Below, in pieces: positions 198 to 37,749 of a stretch of 58,009 nucleotides of DNA. The notes beneath the pieces were generated by a model. That model was not told where the DNA came from. It saw nothing but the letters and a program-made list of their open reading frames with translations, and did no database searches. The first letter of the stretch is position 1. Each line of letters opens with the position of its first letter. The position numbers were made by a program, and so were the translations under genes. Source of the stretch: an uncultured Candidatus Saccharibacteria bacterium (lineage in GTDB: Bacteria; Patescibacteriota; Saccharimonadia; Saccharimonadales; Saccharimonadaceae); assembly GCA_964469535.1 (NCBI GenBank), contig CAYXZG010000001.1:1-58009 (forward strand), written 5' to 3'.

Positions 198-611
198 TGT
201 CCTAAGCACTGGCAACTACCAAGCGGTAAAGCTGAACTAAAGGTCAATCCTGATACAAATGACGAGTACTATGATCCAATTATGGTTGATAACGGGCTAT
301 GGAACCTGCTACAAAATTACGGTTGGCCTGGACCTGAAACAGAACAACATTATGGGCCACTAAACTGGACGAATGCCGATAAAGTTTACCATGGTGGGTT
401 GAGCCCATTTTACTTTCTACCGAGTGGAAGAGTAACCGATGGGTCAGATGGTCTTTCGCGTATCGTTAAAACTGGGCAATCGTGGACGAACGCAGCTTTT
501 AAGGGATCACTCGCGCTATATTACAGCGTTACTCATGATCTAGATAGTGTAGGCGTTAGTCGCGGCTATGAACGATATCATGGCCTCTCCCTTCGCTGCC
601 TCACTCAGTAG
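198..611 (+). other. Variable cassette A: C-terminal half of FISUMP (Fib_succ_major)-like domain, probably silent
   Basis: CPKHWQLPS...YGW...PFY...GLSLRCLTQ*; 19-bp 5' box at 204-222; 3' box 590-650; N-terminal extension from ATG 120 is not homologous to other copies. Confidence 0.75.
204..222 (+). repeat. 19-bp cassette 5' box AAGCACTGGCAACTACCAA (copy 1 of 6)
   Basis: Identical copies at 1295-1313(-), 8524-8542(-), 8560-8578(+), 37206-37224(-), 37251-37269(+). Confidence 0.95.
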
Positions 612-650
612 TAGTATCCTCTAGTGGGTAGATATACTATGATAGATATT
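590..650 (+). repeat. ~60-bp cassette 3' box (CTTCGCTGCCTCACTCAGTAGTAGTATCCTCTAGTRGGTAGATATAMTATGATAGATATT)
   Basis: Near-identical copies at ~8093-8152(-), ~8902-8946(+, shorter), ~36772-36831(-), ~37650-37709(+); only the coding part at ~871-893(-). Confidence 0.95.
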
Positions 651-662
651 TTACTCACTTTC

Positions 663-784
663 CTAGTTTACCTTTACGGAAGTTTGATGAACCCACTCCG
701 ACGCCCGTCTTTACGGGGTCGTCGTTCTTCGCATTGAGCTTCAATGCTCTTTTAGTCCATCAAACTTCCGTAAAGGTAAACTAG
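663..784. repeat. Palindromic element with perfect 27-bp terminal inverted repeats and internal hairpins
   Basis: CTAGTTTACCTTTACGGAAGTTTGATG (663-689) vs CATCAAACTTCCGTAAAGGTAAACTAG (758-784); inner GCATTGA-GCT-TCAATGC. Confidence 0.9.
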
Positions 785-872
785 TAGTGTAATATATGCA
801 CCATATATATTGGTAGATACACACATAATATATACAATACTACATATACATTATTATGTGTGTATCTGTATA

Positions 873-1322
873 CTACTGAGTGAGGCAGCGAAGAGAGTAA
901 GCACGCTTGGAATTATGATGAGAGAATTCCGTTACAAATATACCTGTTCCTGTAGAAGTTTCCCCTTCTCCATACATATAGGCACCGTGACCGAGTCCTA
1001 GATCTTGACGAGTTCCAGTCCAATAGTAGCCTCTGGTTGCAGGTAATATTAAAGCGTCTAGGATGCTATCAGATCCATAAACAGAGCCGCTGGAATTAAG
1101 GTAAAAAGGATTCAGAACAGTATCATATTCATGGCCTTCATACGTCCAGCTACTGGGAGCATGATAGCTATTGTTTGGGATTGTCCAGCCATAATGATCG
1201 TGCAGCAACCCATAGAGACTTTTCTGGACTGGAATAACATTTCCCCAATGTCCACCAGTCTCAGAATCGTCAGCGATCCATTCTCTCTTTCCGCTTGGTA
1301 GTTGCCAGTGCTTAGGGCAGAT
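873..1322 (-). other. Variable cassette B: C-terminal half of FISUMP-like domain, probably silent
   Basis: ICPKHWQLPSGKREW...YGW...PFY...AYSLRCLTQ*; 19-bp box at 1295-1313; only a TTG start with an unrelated short leader. Confidence 0.75.
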
Positions 1323-1369
1323 GAGACGGAGGCGAAGATACGTCAAAATGCTATGTTGTGGCGAGCGGG

Positions 1370-2200
1370 CTAGATACGCTTTTTGCTGCGAGGACTTGGG
1401 GTAGGGCGAGGAGCGCTCGTGGAACTCGTGGCGGCGGAAGTGCTCGGTCCAAGAGAGAGACGTGCGGCAGAGCGGGAGGAAGTTTGGGGTCTCGGGACGG
1501 ATTTGGTGACAGTGGATCTGGCGGTGGTAGACTTAGTACGAGTGCTTTGATGGCTGTTTTGCAAGGATCGGCGGGTTGGTTTTTGCTCGGAGGCGAGCTG
1601 TTGCTCGATGCGGGCGGTAATATCGGCAAGGGCGGCGACGTCGCCGGTTAATTCGTGAATAGCGAGGATGAGACGGAGAGTGCTGGCGCTGTGGTCGAGT
1701 TCGTAGGCGCGTTCGAGCGAATCGACGGCGGCTTTGGTCTGGCCGAGCTTTTCTTGGGCTTTGGCGAGGGCGATGTAGCGAGAAGGGACGGTATTCTCGA
1801 GGGCGATGGCCTGTTCGAAGGCCATGACGGCTTTTTCGAAGGCGCCAGTTTCGAGATAAATAAGACCAACGTTATGGAGCGAGGATGGATTATTATCAAG
1901 AGATTGGGCGATTTCGAAACATTCGATGGCTTCGTTGAATTTTTGCTCTTTAGCATAGAGAATGCCGAGGCGATTATAAGCGGCAGCGTTCTTTTCGTCG
2001 AATTTGAGAATGGTAAGGAGGGCTTTCTCGGCGCGGAGCGGTTTGTGGTCGCGCATAGAAGTTTGAGCCGCATTCCAGAGTTTTTTCATCTGGAGATCAT
2101 AGCGAGCGTTATGCTCGACCGCGGGCTTTCTGCGATGTAAGATCGGCACCACAAAAGCAATCAAGAACGCTAAGGCGACAATGAACGCAATACTGATCAT
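1370..2200 (-). CDS. Membrane-anchored TPR-repeat protein with basic Ser/Thr-rich tail
   Basis: N-terminal hydrophobic helix; TPR motifs AYNRLGILY, SLHNVGLIY. Confidence 0.85.
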   Translation of the reverse strand: MISIAFIVALAFLIAFVVPILHRRKPAVEHNARYDLQMKKLWNAAQTSMRDHKPLRAEKALLTILKFDEKNAAAYNRLGILYAKEQKFNEAIECFEIAQSLDNNPSSLHNVGLIYLETGAFEKAVMAFEQAIALENTVPSRYIALAKAQEKLGQTKAAVDSLERAYELDHSASTLRLILAIHELTGDVAALADITARIEQQLASEQKPTRRSLQNSHQSTRTKSTTARSTVTKSVPRPQTSSRSAARLSLGPSTSAATSSTSAPRPTPSPRSKKRI

Positions 2201-2209
2201 ACCTTTATT

Positions 2210-2881
2210 TTAGCATAAATCGGCGACGATATGCAGCTTGATATGACCATTTTGAGAAAGCGCGTCGTAGAGGGTGAGAAAATTGGGGAGTTTGCTGAGA
2301 AACTTTGGGTTTTTGGTCTTAAAATAGGACTTATAAAGGAGCTCGATGGCGGTGGCGACGACGTTCAGAGCTTGTTCGCGGGGTTGGGTTTTATTTTTGG
2401 TCAATTCGAGTGCGAGGGTGGGGAGGTCGTGTGGGGCAGCGGAGACGAGGCGCTTCGCGAGGGCAAGTTCTTTGTCTTTGGCGCGTGGGGCAGAATCGAG
2501 AACGTTGGCACGGCGCAAAAAGAAGATTTGGGCACGCGAGAGAATGGTCGGTAAAAGCGAGTTGGGCGATTCGGTGAGAAGAAGAAAATGACAATGAGCT
2601 TTTGGCTCCTCGAAAGTCTTGAGAAAGGCGTTTTGAGCAGCTTCGTTCATGGCGTCGGCGGGAGTGATGACGAAATAGCGGTCGGAAGTCTGAAGGTTAT
2701 TAGTTAGCGCGATAAAGCCGCGCAGTTGCTCAACGGTAATAATGTTAGTCTTTTTTGACTCGTCGGGGCGAAGGTAGAGCGGATGAGGCAGGTTGAGTTT
2801 AGTGTCGGGAGACACGACGAAAACGGCACAACTGGTGCGAGTGGCGATTGAGGAAACGTCAGAGGGGTTTTCGAAGAACAT
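2210..2881 (-). CDS. holB: DNA polymerase III delta' subunit-like protein (N-terminally reduced)
   Basis: ADAMNEAAQNAFLKTFEEP and LLPTILSRAQ motifs; no Walker A or Zn module. Confidence 0.75.
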   Translation of the reverse strand: MFFENPSDVSSIATRTSCAVFVVSPDTKLNLPHPLYLRPDESKKTNIITVEQLRGFIALTNNLQTSDRYFVITPADAMNEAAQNAFLKTFEEPKAHCHFLLLTESPNSLLPTILSRAQIFFLRRANVLDSAPRAKDKELALAKRLVSAAPHDLPTLALELTKNKTQPREQALNVVATAIELLYKSYFKTKNPKFLSKLPNFLTLYDALSQNGHIKLHIVADLC

Positions 2882-3780
2882 TAGTTTGAAGTGGCCATGA
2901 CTTGGTTAAATTCGGCGGGGGTGGGGGATGTGAAAGTGCGGCGCTGATTCCCTTCGGGGGTAGGAATGGTGATCTCGAGAGACTTAGCATGGAGAAAGAG
3001 ACGGGAAGCTGGTTCGCCAGAGCCATAGACGGGGTCGCCGAGGATGGGAGTACCGAGGTATTTGAGGTGGACGCGGAGCTGATGGGTGCGGCCAGTCGTA
3101 GGGTGGAGCTCAAGAAGCGAATACTTATCGTTCGTGGCGAGGATTTTGTAGTGAGTTTGGGAAGGTTTGCCGTTTTGGTCGACTTGAAAAGTGGTTGGGC
3201 GTTTCAAATTGCGGGCAATCGGGAGGTCGATGAGGGCTTCGGGGAGTTTCGGATGTCCGACGACGATGGCGAGATAAGTTTTATGGGCTTTGCGATTTTG
3301 AAATTGGCGACGGAGCATTTTTTGGGTGTCGGGATCTTTGGCGAGGATGACGGTGCCGCTAGTGTCGCGATCGAGACGATGGACAAGCAAGCCGTAGTTT
3401 TCGAGGGTTGGCTCTGGGCAATATTCTCCTTTCGCCATGCTGAGGAGCCCGGCGGGTTTGTCGAGGACGAGGACGTGCGCATCTTCGTAAACCACAGGTG
3501 GGCGCGGCGGAACGGCGGCACTAGCGGGAACGCTGAGTCGAAGGTCGACTGTATCGAGGAATTTGGCGTTAGGCTTTGTGATAATTTGACCATCGGCAGT
3601 AACGTAACCGTTTCTAATGAAAGTCTGGAGAGTGGAGCGATTATACTCGGGATGCTGCTTGACGAGAAGATGATCAAGGCGAAATTTCTCGGGTGCACTT
3701 TGATCAGTCGCGAGGATGGTGTCGCCGTTGATAACGCGAGAGAGATCGGGCTTACTGAATTTCTTGCCGGTGATAATCAT
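2881..3780 (-). CDS. RluA/RluD family pseudouridine synthase with S4 domain
   Basis: RLDHLL S4 start, LDKPAGL, HRLDRDTSG, TGRTHQLRVH, PILGDPVYG. Confidence 0.92.
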   Translation of the reverse strand: MIITGKKFSKPDLSRVINGDTILATDQSAPEKFRLDHLLVKQHPEYNRSTLQTFIRNGYVTADGQIITKPNAKFLDTVDLRLSVPASAAVPPRPPVVYEDAHVLVLDKPAGLLSMAKGEYCPEPTLENYGLLVHRLDRDTSGTVILAKDPDTQKMLRRQFQNRKAHKTYLAIVVGHPKLPEALIDLPIARNLKRPTTFQVDQNGKPSQTHYKILATNDKYSLLELHPTTGRTHQLRVHLKYLGTPILGDPVYGSGEPASRLFLHAKSLEITIPTPEGNQRRTFTSPTPAEFNQVMATSN

Positions 3781-3788
3781 AGAATGGC

Positions 3789-4814
3789 TTACCTCAAATG
3801 AAAGGCTTTTTGGACGGCGAGGAGCTTAGCATTGGCGATATTGTTGGCGTAAGCTTCGCTAATCTTGAGGTGCTCGAGGACGGTGGCGTCGTCGATGGTC
3901 GCAAGGCGATTTTGGATATTTTCGAGGAAAGTAGCGACGCTCTCGGCGACTTTTTGCTTCAGATCGCCATAATGAGTTTCGCCAGCCCAAGTCGAAATGA
4001 CATCTTGGAGCGGGAGATTGTTGACGATGGCTTCGATTTGGAGAAGATTACTGATACCGGGCTGATTAAACATGTCGAATTGGATTTTGCCGATGGAATC
4101 GGTCGTAGCGGACATGATCTTTTTCTTGACGGAAGCTGGATCGTCAGACATCATAATGCGACTATTTTCGGAGGCGGAGGATTTACTCATTTTCTTTTCG
4201 GGGTTTTGGAGGTCGCGAATCCGTAAGCCGTCGCTTAAGTTCATGAATTTGACTTGTTCTTTCGGCTCGGCGGGGAGGACGAAAGTTTCGCCGAAACGGT
4301 TGTTGAAGCGCTCGGCGAGGCGGCGCGTCAGCTCGATGTGCTGGAACTGATCTTCGCCGACCGGAATGTAAGTTGCGTCGTAGAGTAGAATGTCAGCAGC
4401 CATGAGGACGGGATAGTCGAAAATCCCGACGTTGACGCTATCTTTGCCGTCGCTTTTGTCTTTGTACTGGGTCATACGGTTCAGCTCGCCCATGGAAGCG
4501 ACGCAATTCAAAATCCAGCAGAGTTCGGAGTGCGCGGGGATGCGAGATTGGCGGTAGATGTGGACATTCGCATTCATCTCGAGTCCGGCAGCGAAATAAT
4601 ATTTGAGGGAGTGAAGAATGTTAGCTTGTAATTCCCCATTGATCTCGGCGATAATCGAGTGGAGATCGGGCGCGAAGATGTTGATCTGAGAAGTGGCGCT
4701 GTGCGCATTGGCGAGGCGAACCATCGGGAGCAGAGCGCCGAGAAAGTTGCCGAGCGTGAAATCATTGTTGACGCGCAGGCCAGTAAGAATAGTGGGTGAT
4801 TTTGGTGTATTCAT
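3789..4814 (-). CDS. trpS: Tryptophan--tRNA ligase (start re-called at ATG 4814)
   Basis: TLGNFLG (HIGH-like), YPVLMAADIL, VGEDQ, KMSKS; TGCTATAAT 6 nt upstream of ATG 4814. Confidence 0.95.
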   Translation of the reverse strand: MNTPKSPTILTGLRVNNDFTLGNFLGALLPMVRLANAHSATSQINIFAPDLHSIIAEINGELQANILHSLKYYFAAGLEMNANVHIYRQSRIPAHSELCWILNCVASMGELNRMTQYKDKSDGKDSVNVGIFDYPVLMAADILLYDATYIPVGEDQFQHIELTRRLAERFNNRFGETFVLPAEPKEQVKFMNLSDGLRIRDLQNPEKKMSKSSASENSRIMMSDDPASVKKKIMSATTDSIGKIQFDMFNQPGISNLLQIEAIVNNLPLQDVISTWAGETHYGDLKQKVAESVATFLENIQNRLATIDDATVLEHLKISEAYANNIANAKLLAVQKAFHLR

Positions 4815-4859
4815 GAGATAATTATAGCACAGGACGAGGCGGGCCAGCAAAAAATGTTC

Positions 4860-4888
4860 TTGACAAAATTGAGAGTTCGTGCCAAAAT
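4860..4888 (+). promoter_or_regulatory. Sigma70-type promoter for the Ubl operon
   Basis: TTGACA-N17-CAAAAT with TG extension; downstream hairpin AGAAGTACTA/TAGTACTTCT at ~4924-4951. Confidence 0.55.
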
Positions 4889-5014
4889 GAGAAAGGGACG
4901 GGAGTTTTTCTAGTCCCTAGAAAAGAAGTACTATTTTACGCTAGTACTTCTCTATCGTTTAAAAGGTTCGTAAAAATCTTTGGCAAATTAAAATTTTTGG
5001 AAAGAAGGGTTCGT

Positions 5015-6385
5015 ATGAGGGTGATGCGTCAGCGTGGGGATTCTGATTTTGAGGTGGAGCCGAAAGACGTTGTGACTGTGGTAATCATAGTGGCAGTCTG
5101 TTTAGTGCTGCTATTGGCGATTTTGACTGGTGTGGCTGCGCTCGTTGCGGTGGCCAACAATAGCCACATACCGGAATACAACGCATCGGCGGCGGAGTTC
5201 AATGCTTTTCCGCTGGACGTAAGGATGGCGATCACGCAGTGGACGGAACGAGATGATGTCGATCCGGAGACTTTCCTGATCACTGAGAAGACGCCAGAGC
5301 CGCTGTTTTTCTTGGCGGAAGAGTTTGAAAACGGGCAGGGTGGCAAAATATGCTGGATAGTTTTGGGCATATTCTTGCTCGCTTGTTCGTGCGCAACGTT
5401 TGCGCTCTACTTAGCAGAGCGATATAAACGTTTTTATCTGTGTTCTTTGCCTTACGACACGGTTTTTGGATGGGTGCTGTTTTTCATGATGTTCGTGAGC
5501 TGGCCGTTCATGCTGATTAGCTACATTTGTATGCGGATTCAGCGGACGGAAGAATTCCGGCGACGGCGAGAAAAACGCAAAGAGCTGCGCGAACAACGCC
5601 GGATGGCGGAGGAACGCGAAAAAGCCGAAGTGCGGCGGCTCGCAGAAAGCGAGCTAACGGCGGTCGCAAAGAAGATGACGCGACCGGCTTTCCCGGAGCG
5701 AGCGCACCGAGCGTTTGTCGAATACATCTTCAACGGTCAAGTGGACGCGCGCAAGGCGCGACGCGAAGAAGCGCGTAAGATGGTGGAAGACGCGAAGACG
5801 CAGCTGCAAGAAGCTGGTCAGGTAGTGAGTGATGCGCAACGGGCGCTGGGTGAAGCCAAGGCAAACTTAGAGCGTGTCGAGTCAGTCTATTCTGAGACGC
5901 GGAGCCTGATAGAGGCGGAAGCGGATTGGGAAGCGATCAAGGACGCTCGAGGTGTGTCGGGGATCACTTACGATCGGCGGCGCAAAAACCTTGCGATTAT
6001 CTTTAAAGTGCGGGTGCCGTATGAGGGGGAGTTGTACGATTTTGGCGACTATCGGCTCGTACTCGATGGTAGCGCGAGGTGCAGATGCAAAGAGATCCGT
6101 TCAGGTGTGAAACTTAACCATACGAGTGTTAGGCCGCTGTATCATATTGATGATAAGCTTTTTTGCTTTGGCCATAGCTTGGGGACGATCGAAGATTATC
6201 TGAGACACAGTCGCTACGTTGAAGCGATTACGCTGATCGTGAATTGTCTACATTCTGTGAACGGCGAGGACGCTGCGCGCGAAATTCCAAATTGCTTTCG
6301 CAAGGTCGAGGTGGTCGAGAAGGCCAAACGTCGGATCTTGCGTCGCAATAAATTGAAATTTTGGCAAAGGAGCGTGGGCGGATGA
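5015..6385 (+). CDS. Multi-TM and coiled-coil protein with C-terminal prokaryotic E2 (UBC)-like domain
   Basis: Three hydrophobic segments, long charged helix, then YDFGDYRLVL...PLYHIDDKLFCFG...YVEAITLIVNCLHSVN resembling the prokaryotic E2 H..C.G pattern; first gene of JAB-E1-Ubl operon; start uncertain (4997/5015/5024). Confidence 0.6.
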   Translation: MRVMRQRGDSDFEVEPKDVVTVVIIVAVCLVLLLAILTGVAALVAVANNSHIPEYNASAAEFNAFPLDVRMAITQWTERDDVDPETFLITEKTPEPLFFLAEEFENGQGGKICWIVLGIFLLACSCATFALYLAERYKRFYLCSLPYDTVFGWVLFFMMFVSWPFMLISYICMRIQRTEEFRRRREKRKELREQRRMAEEREKAEVRRLAESELTAVAKKMTRPAFPERAHRAFVEYIFNGQVDARKARREEARKMVEDAKTQLQEAGQVVSDAQRALGEAKANLERVESVYSETRSLIEAEADWEAIKDARGVSGITYDRRRKNLAIIFKVRVPYEGELYDFGDYRLVLDGSARCRCKEIRSGVKLNHTSVRPLYHIDDKLFCFGHSLGTIEDYLRHSRYVEAITLIVNCLHSVNGEDAAREIPNCFRKVEVVEKAKRRILRRNKLKFWQRSVGG

Positions 6386-6969
6386 ATTTGCGTGTACCCG
6401 GAGCACATCTGTGTATTCCCTTAGCGATCTGGCAGCGTTTGCGCATGTACGTGGAGCTGAGTGCGCCGCACGAGGTGACCGGCATTGGGACATTGATGCT
6501 GCTTGATGCGGAAAATTTCTATGTGAAAGAGGTGTTTTTGCCGCGACAAACTGCGTCGCAAGTTGACTGCGAGTTCCAGGAAGGAGAGTTGAACGAGATC
6601 ATCTATGAGCTCATGCAGGGCAATCCGAGTCGTGTCGAACAGCTGCGATTCCGGTGGCATTCGCATGGGTATAGCCAAGTTTTCTGGTCGCAGAAAGATG
6701 AACAAGATATTGCGGCCTGGGAAAGCCCGTGGGTCGTGAATTTAGTGATGAACGCACAAAACGAACGCCTGGCGCGGCTGGATCTATTTTCTCCGCTCAG
6801 GATTCGGAACTATCCGTTGAAGGTGGAGATCGTGATACCGGAAGATGCCAAGTTGCACAATGAATGCGCGGAAGAGTTAGAGCGCAAAGTGGCGTTTCAA
6901 GAAGCTGCGATGCGGTCGCTTGGAAAGGAGCCTGGAAATGGATTATTCGGATCAGCAAAAAATTTTTAA
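6382..6969 (+). CDS. JAB/MPN (JAMM) metallo-isopeptidase
   Basis: N-terminal Glu (HEVTG) and HSH-x7-S-x2-D (WHSHGYSQVFWSQKD); ATGA overlap with upstream stop. Confidence 0.85.
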   Translation: MNLRVPGAHLCIPLAIWQRLRMYVELSAPHEVTGIGTLMLLDAENFYVKEVFLPRQTASQVDCEFQEGELNEIIYELMQGNPSRVEQLRFRWHSHGYSQVFWSQKDEQDIAAWESPWVVNLVMNAQNERLARLDLFSPLRIRNYPLKVEIVIPEDAKLHNECAEELERKVAFQEAAMRSLGKEPGNGLFGSAKNF

Positions 6970-7612
6970 CGCGGACACGTGGGGTTGGCCGGTGCATTTG
7001 ATCGGCGCTGGCGGGATCAATAATCTCGTCGGTCCGACACTGGCGAAGATGGGCGTGCGCAAAATTCACGTCTGGGATGACGATATTTTGGAAACACGCA
7101 ATTGCCCGACGGAGGTCGCCTACGCTTATCTGATGGCTGGCCGGCCGAAAACCGATGCGATGGCGAACGTGATTGACTATCTGATGGACGGTAAAGTCCA
7201 AGTCGTTCAACACCGCGAGCGCGTAACGGCGGCAACGGTGCTGGAGAGTGGCGTGGTCGTCTGCGGGGTCGATTCGATGAAAAGTCGCCAAGCAATTTGG
7301 CAAAACGTGAAGACAAATTTTTTGAACGTTCCGTTGTTCATTGATGGACGCAGCGCAGGCGAAGAAACGGTAATTTTTGCTTTTGAACCGTCGGATTTCG
7401 GAGCGGCGGAAGACTATGAGTCGTGGTTGTTTGATGACGACGAAGCTTTGCAGCTGGAATGCGGTGCCCGCAATATCGGGTACATCGCGGCCTATATGGC
7501 GGCGGAGATCAGCCGCATTATGACAAGATTCCATCGGGGACTCCCGGTTGAATTTTATACTGCGCGCGATTTTTCCCAAAATAAGGAGGTAGTGAAATGG
7601 AGACTAATCTGA
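6938..7612 (+). CDS. ThiF/E1-like ubiquitin-activating adenylyltransferase
   Basis: LIGAGGI, WDDDILETRN, GRPKT, VCGVDS..SR, FIDGR; candidate catalytic Cys in LECGA; SD AAGGAG. Confidence 0.88.
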   Translation: MDYSDQQKIFNADTWGWPVHLIGAGGINNLVGPTLAKMGVRKIHVWDDDILETRNCPTEVAYAYLMAGRPKTDAMANVIDYLMDGKVQVVQHRERVTAATVLESGVVVCGVDSMKSRQAIWQNVKTNFLNVPLFIDGRSAGEETVIFAFEPSDFGAAEDYESWLFDDDEALQLECGARNIGYIAAYMAAEISRIMTRFHRGLPVEFYTARDFSQNKEVVKWRLI

Positions 7613-7854
7613 AGAAACCTGAGCAGGCAGCTCCTGAGTCGATCGTGAAGATCGCGAACGGCGCCGGCAACGAACCGATCGAGATCGTTTGGCGCGAGGG
7701 CGACACGGTCGCCAGTGTACTGAAGCGGGCCAACATCACCATCGAGCCTGGACGGACGGCGACGATCGGCCGGCAGCGGATCAGCAAACCGAAGAAGACG
7801 GAGGTGCGCCCGGGCGAGGTCATCGTGATTGCCGGCAAGCCCAGCAACGGCTAA
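7597..7854 (+). CDS. Ubiquitin-like (beta-grasp, ThiS/MoaD-like) protein ending in Gly
   Basis: 85 aa; GDTVASVL...VRPGEVIVIAGKPSNG*; strong SD TAAGGAGGT; follows E1. Confidence 0.72.
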   Translation: METNLKKPEQAAPESIVKIANGAGNEPIEIVWREGDTVASVLKRANITIEPGRTATIGRQRISKPKKTEVRPGEVIVIAGKPSNG

Positions 7855-7871
7855 TCTTTCCAAAAATGCGG

Positions 7872-7900
7872 AGCCCTCGACCTTCGGGTCGGGGGCTTTT
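7872..7900 (+). terminator. Rho-independent terminator of Ubl operon
   Basis: AGCCCTCGACC-TTCG-GGTCGGGGGCT then TTT. Confidence 0.75.
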
Positions 7901-7913
7901 CCATTGCACCAGA

Positions 7914-8074
7914 GAAGTTTATGAATCCACTCCGACGCCCTGTCTTTGTCGTTTAGTGAATCCCTTAGTCTCCTTTTATCATCCGGTGGCGCTCTCCGGA
8001 GCGAATCGCTTTCGCTCCCGTGCTCCGGACCCGCGCCAGCCGGGAAACGATGCTAAAAGGAGACTAAGGGATTC
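7914..8074. repeat. Nested-palindrome element (MITE/REP-like) abutting the 3' end of cassette C
   Basis: 26-bp IR GAATCCCTTAGTCTCCTTTTATCATC (7958-7983) / GATGCTAAAAGGAGACTAAGGGATTC (8049-8074), one mismatch; inner stems; second copy at 57893-58009. Confidence 0.88.
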
Positions 8075-8131
8075 TATATACAGCAAAGGCTGAATATCTA
8101 TCATATTATATCTACCTACTAGAGGATACTA

Positions 8132-8542
8132 CTACTGAGTGAGGCAGCGAAGAGCGTAACCATCCGAGTAATAGGCCCCACTCGATAAACGCACATTATC
8201 GGAGCTAAGGCCCGTGCGCATGCTGAGTGCGTTTACGGCCGTAGAAGTATGTAGCCAACTTGAGAAACGAGTACCCTTCAGATTTAGGCCTTGTGGTATA
8301 AGCGTTTGAATCATGCCGGAAGGCATTGCGTAAAATGGTAATAATTGCACGTTGTAAAACATACCGTTATCTTCCCAAACACCCTTACCATCTCGGAAAC
8401 TGTCTTGATTAAGCTTCCAACCATAGTTATTCAGCATCATCCAAAAACTATTTTCTGCCATGATTGGATTATAGTATCCACCACTCTCATAATCCTCATC
8501 AACAATCCATTCACCTTTTGCATTTGGTAGTTGCCAGTGCTT
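8132..8542 (-). other. Variable cassette C: C-terminal half of FISUMP-like domain, probably silent
   Basis: KHWQLPNAKGEW...YGW...PFY...YALRCLTQ*; ORF-track start lies inside the antisense of cassette D. Confidence 0.75.
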
Positions 8543-8550
8543 TTCGGCCC

Positions 8551-8922
8551 ATCTGTCCCAAGCACTGGCAACTACCAAGAGCAAAATCAGACGGTACAAC
8601 CGCTGTATTGGTCGAGGAAAGTCTCTGGGGCATGCTCAAAGAATATGGCTGGACAGTTAATCACAATTGGTATCACGGACCGAACCAGTGGACGCAAAAT
8701 GGAACACAATATAACGGAGCTTCCGCCCCGTTTTATCTCATGCGGGCTGGCAATATAGCAAACACCTCAAAACTAACACGACCTATTGACGAATCTGGCC
8801 AAGGTGGTCTTATGCACGGCGCCACCAGTGCAGATATTTTCGGGCTAGAAGCAAATGTGATTAATGTTGGAGTTGGATATAGCCAAAGGCGTGGCACTTC
8901 CCTTCGCTGCCTCACCCAGTAG
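8551..8922 (+). other. Variable cassette D: C-terminal half of FISUMP-like domain, probably silent
   Basis: ICPKHWQLPR...YGW...PFY...GTSLRCLTQ*; back-to-back with C with only 17 bp between the 19-bp boxes. Confidence 0.75.
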
Positions 8923-8982
8923 TAGTATCCTCTAGTAGGTAGATATGTATGTGATAGTGATGTTCTATGCTATAATGTTAGC

Positions 8983-9696
8983 ATGAGGAAAGTCCAGGGT
9001 GAGGCGACCGAAAAAACGGAATTGTCGAGAGCGAAGTTTGCGGAAGGGCTGTGTTTTAAGAAATTGTTTATGATTTTTTTGATCGGGTCGGTATTCGGCA
9101 CGGTTTATGAGGATTTGTTGATCTATTGGCAGACTTTCCAGGCGACGGGTACGGGTGTGTGGATGCTGCATCGCGGCGTGATTTACGGGCCATTTAATGT
9201 GGTTTATGGGTTTGGAGCAGCGGTGATGTGCTGGGTGCTGCTGCGAAAGGCTTACAACAACTGGCAGATTTTTGGTTTGGCAGCGGTGCTTGGTGGTGTA
9301 GTAGAGTACGCAGTGAGTTTTTTGCAGGAGTTTTTTACGCACACAACTTCGTGGGACTATACCGGTTCGTTTTTGAGTATAAATGGGCGGACGACGGTGC
9401 CGATTATGATTTTTTGGGGATTCTTAGGGATTTTGTTGGTGAAAGTGGTTTATCCGTTTTGCTCGAATTTGATTGAAAAAATTCCACCGCAGGTTGGAAA
9501 TCCATTGTTTAATGTCCTATTGGTGCTGATGATCTTTGATATGCTGATTTCTTGGTCGGCGATCATTCGTCAGACTTTGCGGCATAATCAAATTCCTCCG
9601 TACACGCCAGTGGGTGAATTTTTGGACAGACATTATGATGACCAGTTTTTGCGCAAGTATTTTCCAAACATGGTGCATGAGGATTTAGAAAAATGA
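8983..9696 (+). CDS. CmpB/TMEM229-family (putative ABC transporter permease) membrane protein
   Basis: HRGVIYGPFNVVYGFG, VEYAVS, WDY, INGR motifs; paralog at 51378-52127. Confidence 0.8.
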   Translation: MRKVQGEATEKTELSRAKFAEGLCFKKLFMIFLIGSVFGTVYEDLLIYWQTFQATGTGVWMLHRGVIYGPFNVVYGFGAAVMCWVLLRKAYNNWQIFGLAAVLGGVVEYAVSFLQEFFTHTTSWDYTGSFLSINGRTTVPIMIFWGFLGILLVKVVYPFCSNLIEKIPPQVGNPLFNVLLVLMIFDMLISWSAIIRQTLRHNQIPPYTPVGEFLDRHYDDQFLRKYFPNMVHEDLEK

Positions 9697-10919
9697 TCGG
9701 GTTAGGATTGGTCTGCTTATTGGTATCGTTGAGCCTGTTTGTACGTGGGCGGAGGGTTCTGAAATTTAATACAGTGAGGCTAATGGTGCAGGGCCCGAAT
9801 CCGCGGCCAGCGATTTTGATACCAGCGCGTGACGAGAGTAAGGTGATTGAAGGGCTCTTGGATAGCATTGAAAAACAATCAGTAACCATGCATCCGGATG
9901 ATGTATACGTGATCGTTGAGGATGCGCTGGATCCAACCGTGGAGATTTGTCGAAAGCGGGGAGTGAGTGTGATTGTGCGCGAAAAGTTAAACGGGCGGCG
10001 GCGCAAGGGTTTTGCGCTCGACGATGCGGTGAAAGAAATCTTAAAGCACAAGCATTACGATGTATATTTTATTTTTGATGCGGATAATCGTCTTGCCAAA
10101 AATTATCTTGAGAAGATGCTAATGACTTATGCACGAGGATATCAGATGGCGACGGGATATCGTCACTCGAAAAACGCGAATACAAATGTGATTGCGGCGG
10201 TTTCGAGTTTGACATTTTCGATGATAAACGTTTTGGGTAATACGGGGAGGTTAAAACATGGCGCAAATATGATTTTTTCTGGTACGGGGTGTTATGTGGA
10301 TGGGAAGTTAGTCGAAAAGTGGAAGGGTTGGCCTTTTCGGAGTTTGACGGAAGATTACGAAATGTCGCTTTACGCAACACTGCATGGGATTTCGACTTTT
10401 TATAATGACCAGGCGGTGTTTTATGATGAGCAGCCAGTGCGTTTTGGTCAGACGGTTGACCAGAGAGTGCGGTGGATCAAGGGATATTTTGGGGCTCGAA
10501 AAAAATATGTCCCCTTGATCAAGCGACGAATCGCCTCAATGAAAAAAAGTGGGACGGAGGGCTGCGGAAACTACGGGAGTTTAGTGCGGGAAGTTTTGGG
10601 TGTGAAGGCGGTGATTTGGTTGATCGTAGGCTTGATTTTGTTGACTCTGGGTGGAGTGTTTTGGGCGATATGGCTGAGTCAAGCTCTAGTTGCGGTTGGA
10701 ATGATTGTGGGTGTGGTGGCAGTCGTATATTTAGTTTTAGTGGTGGTGACGATCTTGATGGTGAAACGCGAAAAAATGCGACTAAGGTCAGGAGTGAAGT
10801 GGCGAGCAGTTTTGTTTAACCCGATTTATCTGGTGACGTATATTTGGTGTGCGCTGAAGGCTCTGCTTAGTAAAGATGTAGCCTGGAAAAAGATTGAGCA
10901 CGGAGCGAAGATAAGATGA
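9693..10919 (+). CDS. Family 2 glycosyltransferase (processive-type)
   Basis: LIPARDE, KGFAL, FDAD, LTED, QRVRW motifs; C-terminal TMs. Confidence 0.9.
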   Translation: MIGLGLVCLLVSLSLFVRGRRVLKFNTVRLMVQGPNPRPAILIPARDESKVIEGLLDSIEKQSVTMHPDDVYVIVEDALDPTVEICRKRGVSVIVREKLNGRRRKGFALDDAVKEILKHKHYDVYFIFDADNRLAKNYLEKMLMTYARGYQMATGYRHSKNANTNVIAAVSSLTFSMINVLGNTGRLKHGANMIFSGTGCYVDGKLVEKWKGWPFRSLTEDYEMSLYATLHGISTFYNDQAVFYDEQPVRFGQTVDQRVRWIKGYFGARKKYVPLIKRRIASMKKSGTEGCGNYGSLVREVLGVKAVIWLIVGLILLTLGGVFWAIWLSQALVAVGMIVGVVAVVYLVLVVVTILMVKREKMRLRSGVKWRAVLFNPIYLVTYIWCALKALLSKDVAWKKIEHGAKIR

Positions 10920-12328: not shown

Positions 12329-12357
12329 AAATCATCCTTGGAGTTATTATAACATGA

Positions 12358-28601: not shown

Positions 28602-28628
28602 AGGATTTTCAATTCCGCTACTGCTGTA

Positions 28629-29543: not shown

Positions 29544-29604
29544 GTTAATTTTTATTTTAGCATACTTCAGCAACTGCGACATGGTCTTATGCTATAATGG
29601 CGGT

Positions 29605-31652: not shown

Positions 31653-31696
31653 GTACTATATTATAGCATGTTTTCGGCGACTAGAATAGGAAGTTC

Positions 31697-32140: not shown

Positions 32141-32244
32141 AACTATGAAGAGTTTATCATTCTTATGAAAAAAAGTAAAGTTTTTCAACTACCTCCTGAT
32201 CGCGATACTTTTTATTGCCAAAACAGTGGTTTAATACAAAACTA

Positions 32245-32273
32245 TTGACTTTTCTCATGATCTGTGATACAAT
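32245..32273 (+). promoter_or_regulatory. Sigma70-type promoter
   Basis: TTGACT-N17-TACAAT upstream of the orphan gene at 32372. Confidence 0.65.
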
Positions 32274-32371
32274 GGAGAGATAAGGCTACTGCCTGGTTCT
32301 TTTTGATTTCTAGATAGCTTTAAGGATCTTGGACTTCAAGAGAAGTGGCGGGGCGATTTCAAGGAGGTAAG

Positions 32372-33124: not shown

Positions 33125-33205
33125 TTTAGGAATCGAGCAATTGCGCGAGGGGGTCAGGTATGCATATCGCAAAATGTTGTCTATTTGGCGCTGAAAGGTT
33201 GCGTT

Positions 33206-33236
33206 CGGGGCCGGCTAAAGCCGGCCCCGCATTTTA
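33206..33236. terminator. Terminator hairpin between convergent genes
   Basis: CGGGGCCGGCT-AA-AGCCGGCCCCG then ATTTT. Confidence 0.7.
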
Positions 33237-33298
33237 TTCTAGAGCTTTGCTTGCTTGAGAATTTTATTGAACCTGAGGACAGACGCTCTTTCTACGGC

Positions 33299-34516
33299 TT
33301 ACAATTCGGCAAGCGGCAGAAGCCGGCTTTCGCCAGTGTGGCGATCGATGACTTCGGCGACATTCTCGGAGAGAGTTTTGTCGCTGATCACTACGCGTTG
33401 AGGGATACCAAGCAATTCGGCGTCGACAAATTTTTCGCCCGGACGCAAATCACGATCATCGAAAAGCGTAACGTCTTGATGCTTTTGATAAAAGGCTTCG
33501 GCTTGCTTCGTGCCAGCGTCACCGATGCCGATAAGATAGTATTGATATGGAGCGATGCTCTCCGGCCAGATGAGACCTTTGTCGTCGGCGAATTTCTCGG
33601 CAATGACGCCCATGAGACGTGAAACACCAATGCCATAACAGCCCATAAGGACAGGTCTACGCCCACCATCTCTGTCATTAAAGTCGAGACCGAGCGGAGC
33701 AGTGTATTTCGTTTTGAGCGTAAAGATGTTACCGACTTCGGCAGCTCGAATCGACTGTAAGTCTTCACGTTTGACGCCGAGTTCGCCCAAGACTTCGTCG
33801 TTTAGGACCTCTTCATTCAAAACTACACTTTTGTCTTGATTATAATAAATCGTATCTTCGCCAACTTCGACGACGGTTTGAAACTCATGGCTATATTTCG
33901 AGAAAACGCCACCGCTCGCGAAGGTCTGATAGGTACAATCGCCGATGCCGAGACGTTCATAAATACGCTTATAGGACTGTTCGACTTGGTGATAAAATGC
34001 GTCGTGCGTAGCTTCGTCGGCACTGTAGCTATAAAGATCCTTCATGATGAACTCGCGCGTACGCATGATACCAGATTTAGCGCGCAGCTCATTGCGGAAT
34101 TTAGTTTGGAATTGATAGACATAAATCGGGAGATCCTTATAGCTGGAAACATAAGATTTGAGCAGGTTCGTCATCGGTTCTTCGTGGGTCGGAGCGAGAC
34201 CGAGCTCGCCACCGGCTGCTAGTTGCGTGCGAAACCAAATATCCATCTTCTCAATATCCCAGCGATCGGTTTTTTGCCAAGGTTCAGGATTTTGGAGAGT
34301 TGACATCAGAACTTCTTGACAGCCGATACGATTCAGCTCTTCACGAATGATGGCTTTAATTTTGTCAAGCACAAGCAAACCAAGCGGTAGATAATCGTAA
34401 ACTCCGGCAAGTTCTTTATGGACGTAACCGGCACGACAAAGATATTGCGCACCACGTGCAGACTCCTCTTTTGGGGCGGAGCGGAGAGTTTTGATGAATG
34501 ATTGACTTAGACGCAT
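33299..34516 (-). CDS. proS: Proline--tRNA ligase (short form lacking editing domain)
   Basis: MRLSQ, LAPTHEE, KFRNELR, REFIMKD.YS, EVGNIF, MGCYGIGVSR. Confidence 0.95.
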   Translation of the reverse strand: MRLSQSFIKTLRSAPKEESARGAQYLCRAGYVHKELAGVYDYLPLGLLVLDKIKAIIREELNRIGCQEVLMSTLQNPEPWQKTDRWDIEKMDIWFRTQLAAGGELGLAPTHEEPMTNLLKSYVSSYKDLPIYVYQFQTKFRNELRAKSGIMRTREFIMKDLYSYSADEATHDAFYHQVEQSYKRIYERLGIGDCTYQTFASGGVFSKYSHEFQTVVEVGEDTIYYNQDKSVVLNEEVLNDEVLGELGVKREDLQSIRAAEVGNIFTLKTKYTAPLGLDFNDRDGGRRPVLMGCYGIGVSRLMGVIAEKFADDKGLIWPESIAPYQYYLIGIGDAGTKQAEAFYQKHQDVTLFDDRDLRPGEKFVDAELLGIPQRVVISDKTLSENVAEVIDRHTGESRLLPLAEL

Positions 34517-34556
34517 AATGGGTTAATTATAACACGAAAGACCTAGAATGTTGAAA

Positions 34557-35438
34557 TTAAAAGCCGCCGATGTAGATGCTATAAAATGCGATACCGTTGG
34601 TGAGAATATGGAGGAGAATACCAGCCCAGATCGAGCCAGTGGTTTCACGAAGAAAGCAGAGGATGAAACTGAGCACGAAGACCCTGACAGAAACATTCCA
34701 TTGACCATGGAGAAAAGCGAAGAGTAGCGAAGTGATCAAGATAGCAGGCAAGATCTTTAGATGGTCGCGTAGTTTGCCATAAAGCCAACCCCGCATCAGG
34801 ATTTCTTCGGCGATAGGCGCAAGAAAGACAATGGCGAGCATGGCGTAGATCCGATCAAAACCGGCAATGTAGCCAGAAAAGCCTACGTCTTGGGTTTGAT
34901 CGGGGTTGAACCACGGGAAAACGCTCATCAAGTTGACGATTAGCCCTGCGATAACTCCGTAAACAACGTAGCCAATCGGGGCGAGGCCGATATCGACGAA
35001 CGTAATCGGTTGCGAAACGCCAAGCTCCTCGGGATTGGTTGCGATAGTGTAGGTTTGCAGGCTGAGAGGTTTGCTAGATTCTTCTAGGTTGGCAGTTTTC
35101 TCGGAGGGACTATTTTTCCTGAGCTTCCTAGAGTTGGATTTTCTGACGGCATGGCGTTTTTGAGCTCTAGCGCAGACGCTTTGGATGATACGATATAGGT
35201 AAGGCGGAGCGACAATGATCAAAACGAGCATAAGCGCGTATGACAAAAGGTAATAAACCAGCATCCAGAACGGTAAAGTAATGCGTTCACCAAGAATGAG
35301 AATCATCGGCTGAAGAACGACGAATTGGCTCAAAGTGAGCGATAGACCGGCCCAGAGTGTAACAAGGCAAACGTACTCGATCTTGCGCCAATCGAGGCGA
35401 AAACGACGGAGTTTGGCGAAGTGTCTTCCTGTGGTCAT
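34557..35438 (-). CDS. CPBP (CAAX/Abi) family intramembrane metalloprotease
   Basis: APIAEEILMRG, FAFLH, ILLHILTN. Confidence 0.88.
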   Translation of the reverse strand: MTTGRHFAKLRRFRLDWRKIEYVCLVTLWAGLSLTLSQFVVLQPMILILGERITLPFWMLVYYLLSYALMLVLIIVAPPYLYRIIQSVCARAQKRHAVRKSNSRKLRKNSPSEKTANLEESSKPLSLQTYTIATNPEELGVSQPITFVDIGLAPIGYVVYGVIAGLIVNLMSVFPWFNPDQTQDVGFSGYIAGFDRIYAMLAIVFLAPIAEEILMRGWLYGKLRDHLKILPAILITSLLFAFLHGQWNVSVRVFVLSFILCFLRETTGSIWAGILLHILTNGIAFYSIYIGGF

Positions 35439-35440
35439 AG

Positions 35441-36679
35441 CTAGAAAAGTTTCATGACGTCTAAGACGGTAATAATCACGATCAGCCCAAGTAGTACGGC
35501 GAAGGCGCGGGAAACGATTTTTTCCTCGGTTTCTTTGGTGAGTTTTTTGTGACGAAGTTTATAAATGGCAATGAGTAGCCACCGACCACCGTCAAGCGCT
35601 GGGATTGGCAAAACGTTCATGCAGGCAAGGGAGACGGAGATCAGAGCGGCGAGAAAAGCTAGGTTCGTTGCACCGGCACTGACGAACTGCGGAAAAATAA
35701 CGCCAACGATCCCTACCGGGCCAGAGACGGAGTCACCAGCATCGGCCAGCTCGTTACGACCAACCTCGCGAACTTCTTCGTTAAAGCTGAACTGCCGTAC
35801 TACTCCGGAAACGACATTCCAAACGAGATCGCCTAGGCTACGGAAAGTTTCGCCAGTGAGCTGAAGTGTAGTGCCAATTCCGACGATTGGTGCAGACCAG
35901 GTTGAACGGACGAGAGTCTGTCCGTAGCTCTCAATCGAAACGCCGAGGACATAAGGCGCATCGTGGTCGTTCAGTTTTACGGATAACTCCTGCTCGGCGT
36001 CGTCACGACGGATTTTGTAAGTAACAGTTTCGCCGGCGTGAGCGTCGCCAATCGAGATAACCTCAGGAGCGGAGGCAACACTTTCGCCATTGACGGCGAT
36101 AATTTCGTCACTAGGCTGAAAGCCGGCTTGGGCGGCAGGGGAACCCTCCATAACTTCGGCAACTCGCGCGAAGCGTGCAACATCGACGGCAGTAGCATCG
36201 CTATCAATCTTAAATTGGTTGGGCAAAAATTGCGGCATACCCGTCAGGGCGAGAACCGTAAGAAGGATGGCGGCGATCAACCAATTCATCAAAACGCCGC
36301 CGAAGAGGATTTTAGTTTTATTCCAGAAGCTAGTTGCTCCGAAGGTACCTTTTCGCGTGTCGGCGTCGGATTCGCCGTCCATTGCACAGAAGCCACCAAT
36401 CGGAAGATAATTAAGGCTAAAAACCAGTGAATCCTGGGGCTTTTCCCAGTCGGATTTAGGGATGCGTACCCATTTTTGTTTTTCGATTGTATCACCATTT
36501 TTATCTTTAACTTGTACGGGCCGTTTTACCCAGGCGGCAGCGCGTGGAGGAAATCCAATGCCAAATTCATTAACTTTGACCCCGCTACGTCTAGCCATGA
36601 TAAAATGTCCGAATTCGTGCGCAATCACAAGTAACATCAAAATAATTAGACCAATAATAATCCCAAAAACAATATTCAT
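35441..36679 (-). CDS. rseP: RIP metalloprotease RseP (M50, PDZ)
   Basis: HEFGH, FGIGF, PIGGFC, PDZ domain, NVLPIPALDGG. Confidence 0.92.
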   Translation of the reverse strand: MNIVFGIIIGLIILMLLVIAHEFGHFIMARRSGVKVNEFGIGFPPRAAAWVKRPVQVKDKNGDTIEKQKWVRIPKSDWEKPQDSLVFSLNYLPIGGFCAMDGESDADTRKGTFGATSFWNKTKILFGGVLMNWLIAAILLTVLALTGMPQFLPNQFKIDSDATAVDVARFARVAEVMEGSPAAQAGFQPSDEIIAVNGESVASAPEVISIGDAHAGETVTYKIRRDDAEQELSVKLNDHDAPYVLGVSIESYGQTLVRSTWSAPIVGIGTTLQLTGETFRSLGDLVWNVVSGVVRQFSFNEEVREVGRNELADAGDSVSGPVGIVGVIFPQFVSAGATNLAFLAALISVSLACMNVLPIPALDGGRWLLIAIYKLRHKKLTKETEEKIVSRAFAVLLGLIVIITVLDVMKLF

Positions 36680-36810
36680 AATCTTTATTATACTATGGTT
36701 TTCGATTTTAGGAGCTAAAAGTATGGTGTGTGTGGAAAAATCCCAAGGGACTCTATATACAACAAAGGCAGAATATCTATCATAGTATATCTACCTACTA
36801 GAGGATACTA

Positions 36811-37233
36811 CTACTGAGTGAGGCAGCGAAGGGAGTAAGCACGCTTGGGGTTGTGGCTAGAGAATTCCGTGTACCCTACAGTACGTCCGTACACATACGT
36901 GTAAATCTTTTCTTTTGCTCGACGATTAGACCAGTAAAAACCTACATCTGCTGGATCTTGCAACGAGTCAAAATTTGTATCTCTCCCATAGACCATTCCA
37001 CTAGCGTTAAGATAAAACGGCGTAATATAGGTATTATACGTTGTCCCCTCATAGGCCCAGTTGCTAGACCTATAGAAGCTATTGTCGGGAAGGATCCAGC
37101 CATAATAATTGTATAACAGACCATAGAGACTTTTCTGGACTGGAATAACATTTCCCCAATGACCACCAGTCTCAGAATCGTCAGCGATCCATTCTCTCTT
37201 TCCGCTTGGTAGTTGCCAGTGCTTAGGACAGAT
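36811..37233 (-). other. Variable cassette E: C-terminal half of FISUMP-like domain, no start codon
   Basis: ICPKHWQLPSGKREWIADDSETGGHWGNVIPVQKSLYGLLYNYYGW...AYSLRCLTQ*; in-frame TAG two codons upstream of ICP. Confidence 0.78.
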
Positions 37234-37250
37234 AAGCTAAAAAGCTAATC

Positions 37251-37670
37251 AAGCACTGGCAACTACCAAATGCCAAAGTAGAATTAGCTGAAGACGGATA
37301 TGGCGACAATATCGGCATAATGGTTGAAGACAGCTATTGGAACTTACTAAATAGCTACGGATGGGAAGTTACTAAGATGATCAATGGCGGATACGGTCCT
37401 GCTAATTGGACGAATGGCGAAATAGATTACGATATAAATTCTGCACCCTTCTACTTTAATCGAACTGGAGATTATCTAAAGGAAAGCGGTAGCGATAGGA
37501 GCGGTAGGATGGCTAATCTGTGGAGCAAAGTGCCAGTACTTGTCCAATACTCAGATCGTCCCGCAATACCCAGTGTAATATATTTAGGTATTTTTGAAGA
37601 CACTGCTCCTTCTCGTGTCGACATCAATCGGCTTTCAGGTGCCACCCCCCTTCGCTGCCTCACTCAGTAG
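37251..37670 (+). other. Variable cassette F: C-terminal half of FISUMP-like domain, no start codon
   Basis: KHWQLPNAKVELAEDGYGDNIGIMVEDSYW...PLRCLTQ*; in-frame TAA at 37233-37235 just upstream. Confidence 0.78.
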
Positions 37671-37749
37671 TAGTATCCTCTAGTAGGTAGATATAATATG
37701 ATAGATATTTGCGAGCCAAGCTAGGCACTCAAAGTTGGTTTCCAAAAAC

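Follow-up and report, generated by a model that had tools for sequence, protein, structure and literature searches.

The window analysed here, 58,009 nt from an uncultured Candidatus Saccharibacteria bacterium, contains six start-less cassettes, each opening at a conserved 19-bp box that encodes KHWQLP (Table 1). All six were described in the initial annotation, and all are present with open reading frames. The spacings it gave for the two head-to-head pairs, 17 bp between the boxes of C and D and 26 bp between those of E and F, are correct, and the in-frame stops that it placed just before E and F lie 4 and 5 codons upstream. The 3' limit of the cassettes was also placed at the stop codon, but most copies remain homologous for another ~31-58 nt. 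Among 66 copies in the genome, nine (window cassette B included) have tails that diverge 2 nt past the stop.

Table 1. Features of the window. Cassette frames are counted in codons, one per amino acid, from KHWQLP to LRCLTQ-stop.
Feature	Position	Strand	Remarks
Cassette A	204..611	+	box at 204; 135 codons; 5' box 204-222, 3' box and stop 591-611
Conserved tail of cassette A	to ~652	+	
Palindromic spacer	663..784	.	between tail-to-tail cassettes A and B
Cassette B	873..1313	-	box at 1313; 146 codons; alternative tail class
Palindromic repeat element	7914..8092	.	within tail of cassette C
Cassette C	8132..8542	-	box at 8542; 136 codons; head-to-head with D (17 bp); tail to ~8093
Cassette D	8560..8922	+	box at 8560; 120 codons; tail to ~8946
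Cassette E	36811..37224	-	box at 37224; 137 codons; head-to-head with F (26 bp); tail to ~36766
Cassette F	37251..37670	+	box at 37251; 139 codons; tail to ~37710
F-end segment	37630..37684	+	55 nt, identical to first 55 nt of contig C42

The cassettes are related by patchwork blocks of identity, with exchange points inside them. The first 280 nt of cassette B are identical to those of the cassette at C14:19272, the initial 62 nt of E are identical to B and diverge beyond, and the 10 nt upstream of the B box are those of the expression gene described below. The spacer between A and B (647-902) has a second copy on contig C14, 256 nt long and 100% identical, beside different cassettes. The palindromic repeat in the tail of cassette C recurs after several other cassettes, with a partial copy at the window end (57893-58009). 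An Rfam scan of window positions 1-10000 returned nothing.

The family described as six cassettes is real, but its actual membership is 67, on 32 of the 75 contigs of this 866-kb assembly (98% complete). This is the number of matches to the 19-bp box with at most two mismatches; the reversed box pattern, used as a control, gave none in the same genome, and the same box search in 368 congeners never gave more than two in any one. A search of metagenome contigs for the exact box gave nine matches, all in short unrelated frames, and a cassette profile matched none of nine genomes of another family. All but one of the 67 copies lack a start and correspond to the variable tip of a single predicted surface-protein gene. 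Judged by their lack of start and promoter, these 66 are presumably silent donor copies. They are dispersed singly or as pairs among housekeeping genes and take up 23.5 kb, or 2.7% of the genome. There are 57 intact cassettes, of 120-150 codons, with a median amino acid identity of 31%. In 2950 trials with shuffled cassette middles the frame stayed open just 5 times, and neither alternative frame was open in any of 59 cassettes. As to possible targeting of tRNA genes, six of the 67 boxes have a detected tRNA no more than 400 nt away, in an assembly where just 23 tRNAs were detected.

A full-length gene elsewhere in the genome had been predicted, and one was found on contig C39, outside the window. 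Of the 67 boxes, a count bounded by the fragmentation of the assembly, only the one in this gene follows a long reading frame for an N-terminus that includes a hydrophobic leader. The gene has a frame of 529 codons, follows infB, and carries a promoter, TTGACA-17-GATAAT, that matches the consensus at 11 of 12 positions. Contig C39 breaks off inside the gene's box. Synteny suggests that contig C42 is its downstream continuation: the order infB-gene-C42 is kept in congener G010, and infB directly adjoins the C42 gene in G296 and G281. The two sides of the slot also fall on different contigs in G297 and G367. Contig C42 opens with a 55-mer unique to cassette F, which besides the C42 start and the F site occurs nowhere else in the assembly, and 50 of the 150 contig ends have exactly 55 nt in common with another. 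The stretch shared at the C39 end is just 37 nt long, and the C39 sequence departs from F at box position 20. Since the C42 edge is that of cassette F and the C39 edge differs from it, the slot looks mixed or mosaic. Cassette F itself persists at its own silent site. The front segment of C42 is partly repeated on contigs C29, C27 and C64. We found no second allele of the C39 gene in the study species and no long proteins containing cassette F. The genome encodes recA and ruvB.

The initial annotation likened the cassettes to the FISUMP domain. None of the six window cassettes matched Fib_succ_major (PF09603, TIGR02145) at the curated cut-off, so the likeness, which we retain, rests on profile comparison and sub-threshold hits. 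The cassette profile aligned with the C-terminus of 125 full-length relatives (probability 99.3, E 4.8e-20), many of which carry PF09603. The C39 gene scored 24.5 bits against a cut-off of 41.65, a paralogue on contig C10 scored 28.7 and 20.7 bits against cut-offs of 41.65 and 33.9, and the best single cassette reached E=0.015. The first Atlas match for the C-terminal part of the paralogue scored 0.95. Rows for TDH, SidJ and YopE in the Pfam and NCBIfam scans of the cassettes, which gave no relevant family, were below cut-off and were taken as chance. A model of the paralogue (pLDDT 76) had no Foldseek match at E <=0.001, only weak pilin-like matches, and a sequence search found no solved structure of a relative; a lectin-type fold thus received no confirmation from the fold search. 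Adhesin function, surface location and a binding tip are predicted.

Congeners hold similar archives with boxes of their own, which differ in sequence and encode conserved protein motifs. The proposal that cassettes are swapped into one gene is borne out among the alleles of two congeneric species, and such swapping is likely in the study genome. In the G298 species, 12 full-length alleles have N-termini identical at 537-553 of 553 residues, while 10 of the 12 share just 17-22 of 64 C-terminal residues with the reference. Eleven of the 12 allele tails correspond to six different silent G298 cassettes at 89-100%. In the G283 species, one allele tail is identical to a silent cassette (57/57), and 10 of 12 alleles resemble the template; for 123 of 160 changes, adenine changes alone would suffice. 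In this one G283 gene, adenine mutations of the type made by diversity-generating retroelements (DGRs) occur alongside exchanges of entire cassettes. The remaining G298 allele (one of 12) and one G283 allele (one of 12) had no match among the cassettes fetched. A control paralogue cluster showed no switching.

The congeners also tie the archive to DGRs, a connection that the initial annotation had missed. Six silent G283 copies read as the DGR template altered chiefly at adenines, differing from it at 114 of 234 A positions vs 39 of 972 non-A positions. Adenine-specific differences from a template are seen in G283 and G353 and not in G010, which carries both cassettes and a DGR. The G010 cassettes gave no close match to the G010 template; non-A mismatch was at least 41% in full-length alignments, in a comparison where 8 of 22 rows were mis-aligned.

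A reverse transcriptase (RT) was found in 213 of the 369 genomes of the genus. In the study genome none was detected by family search, tblastn, phmmer or genome search; because the RVT_1 family search missed RTs in two of five congeners where a protein search found them, the protein searches carry the weight of this absence. At the syntenic DGR site the RT is absent within contiguous sequence, and the genome has no template-like sequence. With RT and template repeat (TR) both missing, we rejected an active DGR in the study genome. An accessory gene adjoins the RT in 31 of 31 congener loci, and the study genome keeps an intact orthologue (305 aa, 52% identical) with the next gene 3 nt away. This gene belongs to no Pfam family; Atlas gives a weak lead to bAvd (0.82). 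In the accessory-RT-TR loci of congeners the template spans their cassettes, and the study cassettes begin ~75 codons upstream of that template boundary. Differences between close cassette pairs (126 of 248 at third positions; 161 transitions) carry no adenine signature. Given this and the earlier cassette start, the evidence for DGR ancestry of the study cassettes is indirect. Looked at as a possible DGR codon footprint, third-position pyrimidines make up 62-65% in these cassettes vs 58% in long frames. Where DGRs are concerned, a GC-rich hairpin with a GRNA loop is expected 4-34 bp past the variable repeat, according to the part of PMC3240598 consulted. The hairpin at C42 is GC-rich with a 4-nt loop, but it lies 57 nt past the stop and its loop is of pyrimidines on the sense strand; it may be a terminator.

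Taken together, these data make it probable that the archive is a set of silent donors for gene-conversion variation of one FISUMP-like surface-protein gene. For the study genome we infer the switching, the enzymes and the DGR ancestry of the cassettes. Silent cassettes would be copied by homologous recombination into the single full-length C39-C42 gene, each incoming cassette changing the predicted binding tip of the predicted surface adhesin. Two near-identical arms could anchor the exchange, one formed by the 19-nt 5' box with as many as 17 further nt, the other by the 21-nt 3' box and the ~31-58 nt of its tail. Partial exchange between donors would give rise to mosaic cassettes. As in congeners, the archive probably began when a DGR-mutated tip of the expression gene was copied to new sites, and the study lineage, in which RT and TR are missing at the syntenic site, may now diversify by recombination alone. 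We lean somewhat towards a wider reading, a two-tier system with memory in gut Saccharibacteria, in which a DGR would hypermutate the tip, the variants would be stored in dozens of silent sites, and recombination would recall them. The study genome would be its end state, with the retroelement lost and an archive of longer cassettes driving the switching; a classical antigenic-variation system would then have arisen from a DGR target.

The archive could instead be a fossil, left over from the time of an active DGR, whose donors are no longer used here. The missing RT and TR fit such decay, as do the damaged cassettes, one with a frameshift, one with a stop in the box and two running into an IS3-type element, and no switching was seen in this species. 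Against it, 57 of 61 silent copies are intact when those merely cut by a contig end are left out, despite 31% identity and many in-frame indels, and the boxes are near-invariant and species-specific. The edges of the slot disagree, the 3' edge being that of silent cassette F, and some cassettes occur as identical or near-identical duplicates, which points to recent copying. We regard a disused archive as unlikely.

Slightly less probable still is that a dedicated site-specific recombinase swaps cassettes at the boxes, as in a shufflon or an integron. In its favour, the boxes are sharp and invariant, there are 12 head-to-head pairs genome-wide, and three tyrosine and two serine recombinases are encoded. 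These five matches are on contigs C36, C3, C61, C67 and C56, and none is on C39 or C42. Fourteen tails stop at one and the same nucleotide, which lies at a hairpin's foot, but they have the following sequence in common and so may descend from one event. The spread of the cassettes over 32 contigs in both orientations, the persistence of donors as duplicates and the exchange points within cassettes all argue against such an enzyme, as does the variation among species of box sequences that nevertheless encode conserved protein motifs.

It is very improbable that the cassettes are small stand-alone genes for half-domain proteins. Their frames stay open and an in-frame ATG lies upstream of 13 of 57, yet the open stretch upstream has a median of 15 codons. 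Hexamers resembling a -10 site stand before 8 of 62 cassettes, which is the background level (9.8% at random sites), vs 162 of 304 for long genes. A lone cassette models poorly (pLDDT 58, which is weak evidence), and in congeneric alleles the cassettes are fused to the full gene. We give least credence to the swaps and mosaics being short-read assembly chimeras formed via shared boxes. The assembly is fragmented at these repeats, the identical A-B spacer flanks different cassettes and short reads could generate some mosaics. Yet the 5' stretch in common here (<=37 nt) falls short of the assembly's 55-nt overlap, in G298 just a few codons ahead of the variable part are common to the cassettes, mis-joining cannot yield adenine-biased alleles, and chimeras would leave the existence of 66 different cassettes untouched.

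Most known cases of silent-cassette switching come from pathogens that evade antibodies. Here an 866-kb genome gives 2.7% of its DNA to an archive for one predicted surface protein, a candidate way for uncultured episymbionts to recognise or track changing host bacteria or to escape phage or antibody. This role is testable from existing metagenomes. The archive would tie DGR hypermutation to gene-conversion archives, which have so far been treated as separate, and suggests a source of donor repertoires. We found no description of such an archive in the literature, perhaps because cassettes lacking a start escape gene callers and assemblies break off where the expression gene lies.

The R64 pilV shufflon has a constant N-terminus and exchangeable C-terminal adhesin ends, carried on clustered invertible segments beside the recombinase. 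The study gene is similar in its constant N-terminus and putatively exchangeable C-terminus, but the shufflon analogy drawn in the initial annotation is not supported, since the copies are spread genome-wide on 32 contigs and the donors are duplicated rather than inverted. DGRs with Fib_succ_major/DUF1566 (CLec2) targets mutate the C-terminal region (PMC5758913, in part), which is the region the study cassette covers, and the accessory gene is kept; unlike them, the study genome lacks RT and TR. The portion of that survey consulted describes DGRs acting on full target genes, with at most seven non-adjacent targets, and does not describe start-less dispersed copies that return to the target gene.

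In Neisseria pilE/pilS, Borrelia vlsE/vls and Treponema tprK, promoterless and start-less silent copies pass sequence one way to a single expressed gene at short conserved stretches (PMC4534519, in the part consulted), and the study genome likewise has partial copies, presumably silent, and one predicted expression gene. Their donors are in few arrays, and vls cassettes are ~90% identical (from an excerpt of PMC11499132), whereas the 66 donors here are dispersed, with ~31% protein identity. The msp2/p44 system of Anaplasma phagocytophilum and the msp2 of A. marginale combine one promoter-bearing expression site with ~100 donor pseudogenes in a small genome; the middle is hypervariable, the ends are conserved, and donors match alleles in other samples (PMC4534519, same part). 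The study genome resembles them in its single expression site with a promoter, its many partial donors, its variable middles and its conserved ends. It differs in that the protein is unrelated, the cassette is the whole C-terminus including the stop, and the organism is presumed to be a bacterial episymbiont, not a blood pathogen, whose congeners link the archive to a DGR.

All six segments reported in the initial annotation are present in the window, each beginning with an identical 19-nt box (KHWQLP) and open to the LRCLTQ-stop, and the set to which they belong is much larger. The assembly to which the window belongs comprises 75 contigs (866 kb, 98% complete), and in it the box was matched with at most two mismatches at 67 sites on 32 contigs. 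The reversed box pattern, used as a control, had no match in this genome, and none of 368 congeners had more than two box matches. Intact cassettes of 120-150 codons follow 57 of the 67 boxes; among the other ten, five are cut by contig ends, two run into an IS3-type element, one is frameshifted, one has a stop within the box, and one belongs to a long gene. Pairwise protein identity between cassettes has a median of 31% and exceeds 60% in 19 of 1711 pairs, and shuffling of the cassette middles left an open frame in 5 of 2950 trials. That this is a fossil archive is unlikely.

On the 5' side, similarity with the long gene tails off about 11-13 nt before the box. On the 3' side, homology extends about 31-58 nt beyond the stop in most copies. 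In 14 cassettes (e.g., C8:23315) the conserved tail runs on into the 3' box in inverted form, making one long hairpin possible from box and tail; the inverted box may be what is left of a tail-to-tail partner. Long palindromic non-coding repeats of several families, which have long hairpin folds and could be MITE- or REP-like, occur in cassette tails and elsewhere, on many contigs. The IS3-type element (rve domain) is present in several copies, on C73 (L176) and at the ends of C4, C16, C18, C36, C29, C32, C35, C58, and C71, and its ends are entered by at least two cassettes. Cassette duplication seems to be the source of new silent sites; the 3' flank of the duplicates varies and often has palindromic repeats.

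The proposal that the cassettes are donated to one full-length surface gene is supported by the single gene on contig C39 and by allele swaps in congeners, from which we infer switching in the window's own genome. Non-reciprocal homologous recombination is the likely route into the single expressed gene: two short homology arms would anchor one-way copying, and partial as well as whole cassettes would be transferred. Both recA and ruvB are present in the genome, and the involvement of a dedicated recombinase instead is rather improbable.

The predicted full-length gene reading into the box was found at only one of the 67 boxes, on C39 after infB. It has 529 codons upstream, counted from its start codon, a hydrophobic leader (judged from the sequence by eye), and a near-consensus sigma-70 promoter ahead of it. 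A -10-like hexamer lies upstream of 8 of 62 cassettes, compared with 162 of 304 long genes and a background of 9.8% at random sites, and it is very doubtful that the cassettes are stand-alone genes. C39 ends 20 nt inside the box. In the congener G010, infB is followed by a complete 717-aa orthologue and then by the counterpart of the first gene of C42; in G296 and G281, infB adjoins the C42-type gene directly, and G297 and G367 have the orthologue after infB and the C42-type gene on a separate contig. Judging from this synteny, the cassette slot probably corresponds to the gap separating C39 from C42. At 50 of 150 contig ends exactly 55 nt are common to another place, a recurrence that marks assembly overlap. 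C42 starts with such a 55-mer, found elsewhere only in window cassette F; the end of C39 matches other places over 37 nt at most and has a different base from F at box position 20. The 3' edge of the slot is thus F-like and the 5' edge is not, a disagreement that would be expected of a mixed population or a mosaic.

The silent donors also share segments with one another. Cassette B and C14:19272 are exactly alike over their first 280 nt, the last 297 nt of C14:19272 are common to C32:634, and C32:634 and C10:11484 have 319 nt in common; the exact match of E to B is limited to the first 62 nt of E. Differences are clustered in blocks in seven close equal-length pairs (an eighth pair is also listed), and one cassette occurs in two copies identical across 375 nt. 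Some of these mosaics and duplicates could be short-read chimeras; that assembly chimeras explain the system is scarcely credible.

By sequence comparison, cassettes are swapped into the full-length gene in congeners. Short frames with the species' own boxes were found in 5 of 5 congeners examined. The G010 gene and three orthologues are similar as far as FFVRSG, unrelated over the cassette, and similar again at LRCLAI, and two silent copies of the G010 gene's own tail are 97-99% identical to it. Twelve full-length alleles of the G298 species have 537-553 of 553 N-terminal residues in common, and ten of them match the reference at no more than 17-22 of 64 C-terminal residues. Of the 12 tails, 11 (that of G298 among them) are 89-100% matches to silent G298 cassettes, of which six different ones are represented; the remaining tail had no match among the 22 G298 cassettes compared. 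Twelve alleles of the G283 species agree at 538-541 of 541 positions in the N-terminal part. Among their tails, one equals a silent cassette at 57 of 57 positions, two others have matches of 96% and 93%, and a divergent one had no match among 32 loci compared. In a control cluster of ten paralogues the tails are nearly identical to each other. By eye, the G297 slot cassette (L261/L264, G297:C40) is closer to a silent G010 cassette (L061, G010:C19) than to the one G010 expresses. G298 apparently also has another cassette family, distinguished by its 5' motif (L298 group: L076, L100, L106, L121), which suggests that a genome can have two or more switching genes. Full-length paralogues, with open frames of 500-650 aa, are numerous in G344, G388, G339, G036, and G029, and G344 also has short cassettes.

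Of 369 genomes in the genus, 213 have a reverse transcriptase (RT) of the diversity-generating retroelement (DGR) type; this search did not find one in the window's own genome. A 300-340-aa accessory gene adjoins the RT at 31 of 31 RT loci examined, and at seven of these the next gene after murG is found on the far side. The accessory gene retained in the window's genome ends 3 nt from the murG-following gene inside contiguous sequence, so that RT and template are missing at the syntenic site, and a present-day DGR was rejected for this genome. The retained gene may have a second role, e.g., making or moving cassettes. In G353, 50 cassettes span the template (339 kb of cassette-rich contigs), mismatch to it is higher at A than elsewhere in 47 of 49 cassettes compared, and the nearest six differ at 33-42% of A versus 7-12% of other bases. 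Compared with their template, the nearest 6 of 12 silent G283 cassettes have mismatches at 114 of 234 A positions and at 39 of 972 positions with another base; five of these six terminate in the gene's tail rather than the template's and were therefore copied from the gene's mutated tip. Among the 12 G283 alleles, ten resemble the template, and 123 of 160 changes are adenine-reachable, though 23 of 67 codons alone permit such changes. Against a universal DGR link, G010 cassettes have no close match to the present template, cassettes of the window's genome lack adenine bias and are about twice template length, and the hairpin after the slot departs from the DGR hairpin criteria in the available part of PMC3240598. 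The congeners and the missing RT point to DGR ancestry of the archive, and we lean slightly toward a DGR-stocked archive that outlived its retroelement.

Additional features of the window and its genome (G000)
Feature	Location	Strand	Remarks
Intact DGR accessory gene	C4:32193-33107 (L175:2194-3108)	minus	52% identical to G344's
Second full-length paralogue	C10:247-2412 (L002)		721 aa, without boxes
Copy of region after expression gene	C29:2411-2673 (L009)		264 nt, 99%; 3' box, tail, hairpin, pyrimidine tract; no cassette in front
Palindromic repeats	window 663-784, 7914-8092, 57893-58009		
Apparent 3' half of tRNA gene	window 1-54		about 150 nt ahead of cassette A; read by eye
ThiF-family gene, then 85-aa frame without Pfam match	window 6920-7854		just before cassette C tail

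In a profile comparison, the cassettes align with the C-terminal end of 125 full-length relatives (probability 99.3). PF09603 is present in many of these relatives, and every direct match to the family (FISUMP/Fib_succ_major) fell under curated cut-offs. The FISUMP identity proposed initially thus holds as profile likeness but not as a score above cut-off, and the predicted protein is best termed FISUMP-like. Fib_succ_major-type DGR targets have been grouped with C-type-lectin variable regions in surface proteins, according to the available part of PMC5758913. The model of the C10 paralogue, which is apparently outside the switching system, has a pLDDT of 76, and its matches, to chaperone-usher pilins, are all weak (best E 0.0018); they did not confirm a C-type-lectin fold. 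For a linked gene, the six closest homologues are all from Candidatus Saccharibacteria, supporting the CPR assignment.

In a literature search largely limited to freely accessible papers, we found no description of such Saccharibacteria archives or of DGR-fed silent cassettes. Neither is mentioned in the available part of PMC8144416, and a term search of PMC11659515 returned neither DGR, retroelement, nor antigenic. The shufflon was rejected as a class for the cassettes of the window's genome, and the likeness to it first suggested was abandoned. By sequence-level criteria, and known here from sequence alone, the system would work like Anaplasma msp2/p44, pilE/pilS, and vls, as described in the accessible part of PMC4534519.
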